Notes under the pieces: generated by a model
What the model saw: only the letters and a program-made list of their open reading frames with translations
Database searches by the model: none
What the model was told of the DNA's origin: nothing
Program-made: the position numbers and the translations under genes
Assembly: GCF_044324875.1 (NCBI RefSeq)
Contig: NZ_CP172185.1
Source: Escherichia coli
GTDB taxonomy: Bacteria > Pseudomonadota > Gammaproteobacteria > Enterobacterales > Enterobacteriaceae
Length of the DNA stretch: 64,000 bases
Direction: 5' to 3' (one strand)
Shown: positions 12,746 to 17,048 of the stretch, one piece after another
Layout: every line of letters starts with the position of its first letter
Position numbering within the stretch: the first letter of the stretch is position 1

Positions 12746-13995
<1,250 letters not shown>

Positions 13996-14172
13996 TAGAG
14001 TAAGTAACTGGTTAATTTACATTCTGGTCGCGTGCGTAAATACGCTTTTCCTCACACAGTTGTCAAGTGTTACGTTTAGATAATTGCTATCCGGAAAAGC
14101 ATCTGCTATTTATAGCGGCCTCATTTTTCCCCCGAACATGGGGATCGATAGTGCGTGTTAAGGAGAAGCAAC

Positions 14173-14628
14173 ATGCAAGAAGGGCAAAACCGTAAAACAT
14201 CGTCCCTGAGTATTCTCGCCATCGCTGGGGTGGAACCATATCAGGAGAAGCCGGGCGAAGAGTATATGAATGAAGCCCAGCTGGCGCACTTCCGTCGTAT
14301 TCTGGAAGCATGGCGTAATCAACTCAGGGATGAAGTCGATCGCACCGTTACACATATGCAGGATGAAGCAGCCAACTTCCCGGACCCGGTAGACCGTGCA
14401 GCCCAGGAAGAAGAGTTCAGCCTCGAACTGCGTAACCGCGATCGCGAGCGTAAGCTGATCAAAAAGATCGAGAAAACGCTGAAAAAAGTGGAAGACGAAG
14501 ATTTCGGCTACTGCGAATCCTGCGGTGTTGAAATTGGTATTCGCCGTCTGGAAGCGCGCCCGACAGCCGATCTGTGCATCGACTGCAAAACGCTGGCTGA
14601 AATTCGCGAAAAACAGATGGCTGGCTAA
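14173..14628 (+). CDS. dksA: RNA polymerase-binding transcription factor DksA
   Basis: Start at [10 protein letters not shown] (151 aa); C4 zinc finger CESCGVEI...CIDCK; acidic coiled-coil tip. Confidence 0.96.
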
Positions 14629-14655
14629 TTACAGCCGTTCCATCACGTTTACCAC

Positions 14656-14684
14656 AGGCGGGAAATGCTCCCGCCTTATTTTTT
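14656..14684 (+). terminator. dksA intrinsic terminator
   Basis: aggcggga-aatgc-tcccgcct hairpin followed by tatttttt; sits over the first in-frame ATG of the gluQ ORF. Confidence 0.8.
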
Positions 14685-14694
14685 GTTCAAAGAG

Positions 14695-15591
14695 ATGACA
14701 GACACACACTATATTGGCCGCTTTGCCCCCTCTCCTTCCGGCGAGCTTCATTTTGGCTCTCTGATTGCCGCGCTTGGCAGCTATTTACAGGCTCGCGCTA
14801 GGCAAGGTCGCTGGCTAGTACGCATTGAAGATATCGACCCGCCTCGTGAAGTTCCCGGTGCCGCAGAGACTATCCTGCGCCAGCTGGAACATTACGGTCT
14901 GCACTGGGACGGCGACGTTCTCTGGCAATCGCAACGTCACGACGCCTATCGCGAAGCACTCGCCTGGTTACATGAGCAAGGACTAAGTTATTACTGCACC
15001 TGCACGCGCGCGCGTATTCAAAGCATTGGCGGTATTTACGACGGCCATTGCCGGGAATTGCATCATGGACCAGACAACGCCGCAGTACGTATCCGCCAGC
15101 AGCATCCGGTCACCCAGTTTACTGACCTGCTGCGAGGCATTATTCACGCCGACGAAAAACTGGCACGGGAAGATTTTATTATTCATCGCCGTGATGGTTT
15201 GTTTGCCTATAACCTGGCGGTGGTGGTGGATGATCACTTCCAGGGCGTGAGCGAAATTGTCCGCGGGGCAGATTTGATCGAACCGACAGTGCGGCAAATC
15301 TCGCTGTACCAGCTTTTTGGCTGGCAAGTGCCAGATTACATTCATCTTCCGCTGGCGCTTAATCCACAAGGCGCTAAACTTTCCAAGCAGAATCATGCGC
15401 CTGCGTTGCCAAAAGGCGATCCACGCCCGGTACTAATCGCGGCACTTCAATTTCTGGGGCAGCAGGCAGAAGCACACTGGCAGGATTTCAGCGTCGAGCA
15501 AATCCTTCAGTTAGCCATCAAAAACTGGCGGCTTACCGCCGTGCCTGAGTCGGCAATTGTAAATTCAACATTCTCAAATGCGTCATGCTGA
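14695..15591 (+). CDS. gluQ: glutamyl-Q tRNA(Asp) synthetase
   Basis: GluRS-like catalytic domain (class I HIGH-type motif in [13 protein letters not shown]); start chosen at [10 protein letters not shown] because the upstream ATG at 14665 lies in the terminator loop. Confidence 0.85.
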
Positions 15592-15650
15592 GCTATGATT
15601 AGCCGCTATTTTTTTGTCCTGAATGATGTTTGACACTACCGAGGTGTACT

Positions 15651-17048
15651 ATTTTTACCCGAGTCGCTAATTTTTGCCGCAAGGTGCTAAGCCGCGAGGA
15701 AAGCGAGGCTGAACAGGCAGTCGCCCGTCCACAGGTGACGGTGATCCCGCGTGAGCAGCATGCTATTTCCCGCAAAGATATCAGTGAAAATGCCCTGAAG
15801 GTAATGTACAGGCTCAATAAAGCGGGATACGAAGCCTGGCTGGTTGGCGGCGGCGTGCGCGACCTGTTACTTGGCAAAAAGCCGAAAGATTTTGACGTAA
15901 CCACTAACGCCACGCCTGAGCAGGTGCGCAAACTGTTCCGTAACTGCCGCCTGGTGGGTCGCCGTTTCCGTCTGGCTCATGTGATGTTTGGCCCGGAGAT
16001 TATCGAAGTTGCGACCTTCCGTGGACACCACGAAGGTAACATCAGCGACCGCACGACCTCCCAACGCGGGCAAAACGGCATGTTGCTGCGCGACAACATT
16101 TTCGGCTCCATCGAAGAAGACGCCCAGCGCCGCGATTTCACTATCAACAGCCTGTATTACAGCGTGGCAGATTTTACCGTCCGTGATTACGTTGGCGGCA
16201 TGAAGGATCTGAAAGACGGCGTTATCCGTCTGATTGGTAACCCGGAAACGCGCTACCGTGAAGATCCGGTACGGATGCTGCGCGCGGTACGTTTTGCCGC
16301 CAAATTGGGTATGCGTATCAGTCCTGAAACCGCAGAACCGATCCCTCGCCTGGCTACCCTGCTGAACGATATTCCACCGGCACGTCTGTTTGAAGAATCT
16401 TTGAAACTGCTACAAGCGGGCTACGGTTACGAAACCTATAAGCTGCTGTGTGAATATCATCTGTTCCAGCCGCTGTTCCCGACCATTACCCGCTACTTCA
16501 CGGAAAATGGCGACAGCCCGATGGAGCGGATCATTGAACAGGTGCTGAAGAATACCGATACGCGTATCCATAACGATATGCGCGTGAACCCGGCGTTCCT
16601 GTTTGCCGCCATGTTCTGGTACCCACTGCTGGAGACGGCACAGAAGATCGCCCAGGAAAGCGGCCTGACCTATCACGACGCTTTCGCGCTGGCGATGAAC
16701 GACGTGCTGGACGAAGCCTGCCGTTCTCTGGCGATCCCGAAACGTCTGACGACGTTAACCCGCGATATCTGGCAGTTGCAGTTGCGTATGTCCCGACGTC
16801 AGGGTAAACGCGCCTGGAAACTGCTGGAGCATCCTAAGTTCCGTGCGGCTTATGACCTGTTGGCCTTGCGAGCTGAAGTTGAACGTAACGCTGAACTGCA
16901 GCGTCTTGTGAAATGGTGGGGGGAGTTCCAGGTTTCCGCGCCACCAGATCAAAAAGGGATGCTCAACGAGCTGGATGAAGAGCCGTCACCGCGTCGCCGT
17001 TCTCGTCGTCCACGCAAACGCGCACCGCGTCGTGAGGGTACCGCATGA
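15651..17048 (+). CDS. pcnB: poly(A) polymerase I
   Basis: Nucleotidyltransferase GGGVRD...DFD motifs; known non-canonical AUU start at IFTRVANF (465 aa); 4-bp overlap with folK. Confidence 0.9.

Follow-up and report, generated by a model that had tools for sequence, protein, structure and literature searches.

The hairpin and U-run that follow dksA in the analysed stretch of Escherichia coli DNA (64 kb, hereafter the window) are very probably the intrinsic terminator of dksA, and gluQ is very probably served by mRNA that reads through this terminator and is translated from the ATG at 14695. The element is already known: it is the published dksA-gluQ-rs terminator, described in Shigella flexneri 2457T by Caballero 2012 (PMC3542578) and found here in another E. 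coli lineage, and the preliminary description was right in matching the locus to published work on dksA-gluQ. Little novelty is claimed, as the work of 2012 already described the biology and genome-wide data obtained since then are consistent with it. The element of Shigella likewise holds an AUG in its loop and a second AUG 30 nt downstream, and only the strain differs, GluQ of the window beginning with MTDTH and not with MTDTQ. The features on which the argument rests were as follows.

14173 to 14628, plus strand: dksA coding sequence, 151 aa, as annotated by PGAP in a record of 99.9% identity, with the stop codon TAA at 14626-14628.
14629 to 14655, plus strand: spacer of 27 nt from the dksA stop codon to the hairpin, variable between genera.
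14656 to 14676, plus strand: terminator hairpin, from sequence, folding and conservation, and from stem mutagenesis in Shigella.
14656 to 14662, plus strand: Shine-Dalgarno (SD)-like AGGCGGG on the 5' side of the loop ATG, locked in the 5' stem arm.
14665 to 14667, plus strand: loop ATG, the first in-frame ATG of the long open reading frame, used in the K-12 annotation and not the working start.
14677 to 14686, plus strand: U-tract TATTTTTTGT, directly 3' of the stem; the RNA 3' end in vivo equals 14680.
14686 to 14715, plus strand: promoter-like TTCAAA-18-TATATT, matching at 9 of 12 positions and judged to be a chance occurrence.
14695 to 15591, plus strand: gluQ (GluQRS, 298 aa) from the true ATG to the stop codon, from PGAP, Edman sequencing, N-terminomics and conservation.

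Of 5426 complete E. coli genomes, 5424 contained the 1.6-kb segment from 14100 to 15700, only 6 of them with an identity of at least 99%, and the window represents an uncommon E. coli lineage. The gene order at the locus, according to the PGAP annotation of the closest genome, was thpR, sfsA, dksA, gluQ, pcnB and folK; pcnB, the next gene after gluQ, has an AUU start. The dksA product matched the NCBIfam DksA equivalog model NF008045 over its full length with 346.4 bits (cutoff 289), and the dksA start is preceded by a strong SD with an anti-SD duplex of -9.2 kcal/mol. The gluQ product scored 616.8 bits against the GluQRS equivalog NF004312 (cutoff 453) and 379 bits against TIGR03838 (cutoff 277), and the HXGS adenylate-binding signature of the enterobacterial subgroup of GluQRS (tRNA glutamyl-Q34 synthetase, YadB) was found in its translation. 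For the comparison with relatives, 80 Enterobacteriaceae loci from species-representative genomes, ranging from Escherichia to Cedecea and Buttiauxella, were used as the best 80 of 299 relatives; Klebsiella, Yersinia, Vibrio and Pseudomonas lie outside this set. All wet-lab evidence cited below was obtained with S. flexneri 2457T and E. coli K-12, both of which are identical to the window over 14630-14690.

The hairpin starts 28 nt past the dksA stop codon and consists of the 5' arm AGGCGGGA (14656-14663), the loop AATGC (14664-14668) and the 3' arm TCCCGCCT (14669-14676), giving a stem of 8 pairs, 6 of them G-C, closed by a 5-nt loop. The preliminary description had placed a canonical hairpin plus U-run after dksA, and its coordinates proved exact. 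The hairpin alone folded with -14.5 kcal/mol (the published value is -14.7 kcal/mol, PMC3542578), and the probability of its stem bases being unpaired was about 0 in a context of 181 nt. For the 72-nt hairpin region, a z-score of -2.73 was obtained and an equally stable fold was found in 1 of 200 shuffles. T occupied 7 of the first 9 bases of the tract directly behind the stem, which accordingly ranks as a U-tract. A loose terminator scan of 4 kb returned 7 candidates against 5.2 expected and was uninformative alone. When the stem had to have 7 bp or more with 5 or more G-C pairs, and T had to make up 6 or more of 8 bases, 5 matches were left on both strands of the 64-kb window, against a mean of 0.55 under a first-order Markov model.

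Two further terminator readings of this region were rejected. The element does not qualify as bidirectional, because no T-run follows the hairpin when the sequence is read on the minus strand. On that strand, a terminator-like match from 14636 to 14619 has a weak stem of 5 pairs and lacks a convergent gene.

The hairpin is conserved among the relatives. The stem core GGCGGG/CCCGCC was present in 75 of the 81 sequences (the best 80 of 299 relatives), and the loops, the flanks and the outer pairs varied around it. In the hairpin alignment, 86.4% of the cells were paired, compared with 52-57% in the slid controls; six pairs were invariant, and the inner pair was A-U in 45 cases, G-C in 4 and broken in none, as in compensatory change. 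Covariation is limited because the stem core never varies. The T-tract drifts as well, Enterobacter having TTGTTACTGTTGATATG, and the spacer 14629-14655 differed in both sequence and length across 79 related loci, with no conservation between genera. The distance from the hairpin to the gluQ ATG ranged from 12 to 26 nt across the relatives compared. The hairpin is thus a structure that has been maintained in evolution, as was looked for in an intrinsic terminator.

The segment between the hairpin and the gluQ ATG contains 48% U and showed no excess of structure, the median MFE across 75 loci being -0.7 against -1.1 for shuffles. A weak second helix at 14677-14697, in which the U-tract would pair with AAGAGAUG and cover the true AUG, was considered (-2.1 kcal/mol when 14677-14697 was folded by itself and -3.9 with a longer spacer segment) and was rejected as a conserved feature, only Escherichia and a few others having it.

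Termination at this site in cells is documented by published data. According to the table entry in supplementary file 3 of the Term-seq study of Adams 2021 (PMC7815308), an RNA 3' end of K-12 lies at 160097(-), which corresponds to 14680 of the window; the 61-nt sequence printed in that entry is identical to window 14630-14690. The average read count given there, 3,097,035, exceeds by far that of most other entries consulted in the table. In the bicyclomycin data of the same entry, the Rho score is 1.16 and the field for a significant Rho termination region reads 'No'; as an intrinsic terminator, the site scores 7.47 against a threshold of 3.0. The mapping of transcript ends, which the preliminary description had proposed as a check, is hence available in the entry of this table for an identical sequence; both the RNA 3' end and the independence from Rho are K-12 data. 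In Shigella, stem mutations raised the activity of a lacZ fusion more than 2-fold, and a fusion without the intergenic region holding the terminator showed an increase of about 10-fold (PMC3542578).

The 3' end at 14680 might instead have arisen by processing, or by exonuclease stalling, on a longer dksA-gluQ(-pcnB) transcript, and not by termination. At just 4 nt from the stem, the mapped end is nearer than typical termination points, which suggests exonuclease trimming, and the 3' end alone does not separate termination from processing. Terminated RNAs are, however, commonly trimmed back to the hairpin. The full U-tract and the intrinsic-terminator score in the Term-seq table entry argue against processing, as does the rise in transcription of a downstream reporter when the hairpin is lost or weakened, which decay stalling would not produce. 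Such an origin of the 3' end is considered extremely unlikely, and intrinsic termination remains the preferred reading.

The dependence of gluQ on read-through of the dksA terminator, which the preliminary description had given as probable, was borne out by the published data. By RT-PCR in S. flexneri, a joint dksA-gluQ transcript was detected (PMC3542578); a lacZ fusion extending from dksA +58 to the gluQ start, without the dksA promoters, stayed at the baseline (PMC3542578); and in the K-12 table entry the RNA coverage falls from 250 before the terminator to 62 behind it (PMC7815308). The read-through fraction is thereby roughly known, at 10% from lacZ and 25% from coverage. Since gluQ lacks a promoter of its own, the read-through RNA is the only source of gluQ mRNA.

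A separate gluQ promoter, located inside dksA or at 14686-14715 and acting independently of read-through, was weighed against this and is very unlikely. It might appeal to the promoter-like TTCAAA-18-TATATT, and to a report, from end-point RT-PCR, of similar and stable levels of the dksA and gluQ mRNAs but a varying junction amplicon (PMC3542578). The number of promoter-like matches in the region (4) was, however, close to the 3.0 expected from shuffles, and the site at 14686-14715 would start transcription at about 14722, past the true ATG; because the ATG at 14695 precedes its -10 hexamer, no full-length GluQ could be obtained from it. The baseline activity of the Shigella fusion without the dksA promoters likewise speaks against a promoter within the segment that the fusion covers. 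Read-through from dksA is therefore kept as the source of gluQ mRNA.

The gluQ start was resolved by several independent lines of evidence. The ATG at 14665-14667 lies wholly inside the 5-nt loop (14664-14668), just where the preliminary description had seen it, and opens a reading frame of 308 codons (14665-15591); this frame has its next ATG at 14695-14697, which the same description had favoured. Edman sequencing of C-terminally tagged GluQ, produced from a T7-driven plasmid construct and not by native expression, gave TDTQYIGRFAP (PMC3542578), which points to the second Met as the start and to a protein of 298 aa. In the TRAINSPOTTER 2026 N-terminomics data (PMC13245402, Table S1), gluQ occurs once, with an alternative start and the peptide MTDTQYIGR, and is classed as 'N-terminal truncation (10aa)' of UniProt P27305; the modification columns of this row are blank. 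N-terminal sequencing, also proposed beforehand as a check, had thus been done already, and both data sets place the start at Met11. PGAP starts gluQ at 14695 in the closest genome, and crystallised YadB is the 298-aa form: PDB 1NZJ aligned with residues 11-308 of the long gluQ frame (E = 7.9e-203), and 4A91 aligned with 11-308 too. An ATG equivalent to 14695, followed by conserved N-terminal residues, was found in all usable loci among the best 80 of 299 relatives, and in 6 loci an in-frame stop codon within 15 nt upstream of this conserved ATG rules out an upstream extension.

Translation of GluQ from the loop ATG, as a protein of 308 aa, or the use of both starts, is already largely refuted by these data and is scarcely credible. 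In its favour, 14665 is the first ATG of the reading frame, the K-12 gene b0144 (NC_000913.3) is annotated from it, and the NCBIfam profile NF004312 has 8 extra N-terminal positions, which were left unmatched. The SD-like AGGCGGG, 3-9 nt upstream of 14665, forms an anti-SD duplex of -6.3 kcal/mol, and a possible SD before the loop ATG was noted by the authors of PMC3542578 as well. These bases are nevertheless fully paired in the stem, with a probability of being unpaired of about 0, and only the Met11 start was found by Edman sequencing and N-terminomics.

The distribution of the loop ATG also stands against its use. Among the loci compared, those of the window, K-12, Escherichia sp. E1V33 and E. 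albertii were the only ones to carry it in frame. In Escherichia sp. MOD1-EC7003 it is out of frame because the T-run is one base shorter; it is absent in E. whittamii (loop AATAC) and in isolate AF16, filed as E. coli (AATTAC), and, according to PMC3542578, in E. fergusonii. In no genus other than Escherichia among those compared was the loop ATG both present and in frame. An ATG between the stem cores was carried by 2 of the 49 distinct hairpin variants in related genomes, a frequency no higher than chance, since an ATG would be expected in roughly 5-8% of random loops of 5-7 nt by our estimate. From its distribution in these sequences, the loop ATG appears to be a chance feature of the Escherichia lineage, and 14695 is retained as the start of gluQ.

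The start at 14695 has no Shine-Dalgarno, the anti-SD duplex being +0.3 kcal/mol, and no obvious SD at this start was reported in PMC3542578 either. The same applies to the homologous gluQ starts, none of 79 being at or below -6 kcal/mol; their median was +1.2, compared with -2.0 for random window positions.

The element is proposed to work as follows. The hairpin and U-run (14656-14686) act as an intrinsic, Rho-independent terminator of dksA, so that most transcripts from the dksA promoters end in the U-run, with the mapped 3' end corresponding to 14680, and a minority, roughly 10-25%, reads through into gluQ. On the read-through RNA the hairpin would re-form, burying AGGCGGG in the stem and holding the AUG at 14665 in the 5-nt loop; we infer that ribosomes do not start at 14665 because of this burial and confinement. 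Ribosomes start instead 18 nt beyond the stem, at the AUG of 14695, and produce the 298-aa GluQRS. Initiation at this SD-less start, behind an unstructured U-rich spacer, is probably weak and SD-independent, at an open A/U-rich site. By the combination of partial termination and poor initiation, GluQRS would be kept far below DksA, yet tied to dksA transcription.

The hairpin might have a role beyond that of a leaky terminator, as the site of regulated antitermination, as a target for binding of a protein or an RNA, or as a positioner of ribosomes for the SD-less gluQ start; if the hairpin were regulated, read-through or translation would change with growth phase or stress. This is doubtful. 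Across many genera the six core pairs stay the same whereas flanks, loops and even the T-tract drift, the core persisting also where the U-tract has decayed, and the SD-less start always follows the hairpin at the short distance given above. An invariant G-C core beside a U-tract is, however, also usual in plain terminators, in which such cores are commonly conserved. In Shigella, the intergenic (junction) amplicon rose 20-fold in stationary phase by end-point RT-PCR, and the authors, whose search for a riboswitch was negative, left a riboswitch-like or protein-binding role open (PMC3542578). This rise is not explained by a purely passive terminator, and a sequence-specific regulatory site would fit it. 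The figure comes from end-point RT-PCR and was not replicated in the literature searched, in which no relevant follow-up on GluQ-RS regulation after 2012 was found; in a Term-seq paper on synthetic 3'-UTRs (PMC9023263), dksA is named only in a reference. That the hairpin is a sequence-specific site at which a bound protein or RNA tunes gluQ read-through or translation with growth phase or stress is improbable.

The Rfam search of 13900-15800, with E values up to 1, gave nothing relevant, neither a riboswitch nor an sRNA family, its sole match being a meaningless snoRNA inside dksA. The 27-nt spacer upstream of the hairpin varies between genera, so that no conserved alternative pairing partner is apparent. 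The leaders of preQ1 and other riboswitch-attenuators resemble dksA-gluQ in that a terminator hairpin stands immediately 5' of a queuosine-pathway gene. Unlike leaders of the preQ1 type, dksA-gluQ showed no aptamer, no Rfam match and no conserved alternative structure upstream of the hairpin, and was not classed as a riboswitch or attenuator. The plain, leaky dksA terminator thus remains the preferred reading of the hairpin.

Parallels to the leaky terminators before dnaG (in rpsU-dnaG-rpoD) and in recA-recX are cited in PMC3542578, according to which dnaG has an unusual SD and read-through into recX is about 10%. In both cases, as at gluQ, a leaky terminator between co-transcribed genes gives a low ratio of the distal gene; the genes are different and the sequences unrelated, and the likeness rests on the statement of PMC3542578. 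With respect to its start, gluQ belongs to the truncation-type alternative starts of TRAINSPOTTER (PMC13245402), the false start lying here inside a terminator loop.

The false start has had consequences for annotation. In K-12, b0144 (NC_000913.3) is still given as 927 nt (308 aa) from the loop ATG, and UniProt P27305 likewise. Because of this annotation, the dksA terminator was entered in the Term-seq study as an internal 3' end of gluQ, at a distance of 15 nt from the annotated start codon (PMC7815308). The outdated start also inflates NCBIfam NF004312 by its 8 N-terminal positions. The practical value of the finding lies therefore in annotation, the false start adding 10 codons on paper and having misled the records of K-12 and UniProt. 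For the biology of gluQ, the locus offers a clean example of how a downstream gene is kept at low expression, by a leaky terminator followed by an SD-less start at which initiation is probably weak.

The start of gluQ was placed at the ATG in the loop of the dksA terminator hairpin (giving 308 aa) in both the K-12 reference gene and the UniProt entry P27305, and the additional N-terminal segment was located as follows.

Window 14665-14694: loop-ATG extension of gluQ (K-12 counterpart gene, NC_000913.3 159186-160112).

The gluQ product annotated by PGAP was 298 aa in length, and 8 N-terminal positions of the NCBIfam profile NF004312 (306 positions) were without a match. Because the K-12 annotation starts at the loop ATG, the 3' end of the dksA terminator is listed as 'internal' to gluQ by Adams 2021 (PMC7815308).

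On the read-through RNA, pairing of the terminator U-tract with AAGAGAUG is possible at window 14677-14697, by which the true gluQ start codon would be covered. The helix was weak (-2.1 kcal/mol for 14677-14697 alone and -3.9 kcal/mol for a longer spacer segment), with an unpaired probability of 0.13-0.27 for the true AUG, and was found in Escherichia and a few others, with no conservation across the family.

Two groups of loci were distinctive in the 75 nt upstream of gluQ. An extra strong hairpin was present upstream of the conserved one in Kosakonia (L049, L050, L053 and L074), as exemplified by GGCGCACCG...TGGTGCGCC at -20 kcal/mol. The Phytobacter-type loci (Phytobacter and relatives: L027, L031, L034 and L065) were without the GGCGGG core, with CGGGGAAAATTTCCCG in its place and a poor T-tract.

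The window is a member of a rarely sampled E. coli lineage: at least 99% identity over 14100-15700 was obtained for only 6 of the 5424 complete genomes, the best-matching isolates came from a pig (O169:H41) and from sediment, and the N-terminus of its GluQ is MTDTH, not MTDTQ. Isolate AF16 (NZ_OZ547176.1 589-672) is filed as E. coli and showed only 91.9% identity at the locus, with a hairpin loop of AATTAC without ATG and with differences also in the dksA 3' end and the spacer; it may represent another Escherichia lineage.

In the sfsA-dksA spacer, a terminator-like hairpin (CTGCTATTTATAGCGG, then CCTCATTTTT) was observed at window 14103-14128, which may serve either to terminate sfsA or as an attenuator within the dksA leader. 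The K-12 Term-seq 3' end at 160652(-), corresponding to window 14125, was reported as 'orphan' in one condition (Adams 2021, PMC7815308). Over the dksA stop codon, a weak terminator-like match of 5 pairs was seen on the minus strand at 14619-14636 (GGCTGTAATTAGCCAGCC, then ATCTGTTTTT), and it probably arose by chance, since no convergent gene ends there.

Just upstream of pcnB, a promoter-like TTCTCA-17-TATGAT lies across the gluQ stop codon (within window 15571-15620), and a run of 7 T was found at 15610-15616, with no convincing stem ahead of it. The pcnB start was TTG 15630 in the mechanical ORF list, versus ATT 15651 by PGAP, and the initiation features were as follows.

Window 15642-15645: GAGG, likely pcnB Shine-Dalgarno sequence.
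Window 15651-15653: ATT, pcnB start (PGAP annotation).

An AUU start of E. coli pcnB was reportedly described by Binns and Masters in 2002. Taken together with the PGAP start, this indicates that gluQ and pcnB, which are consecutive, both have translation-limiting starts.
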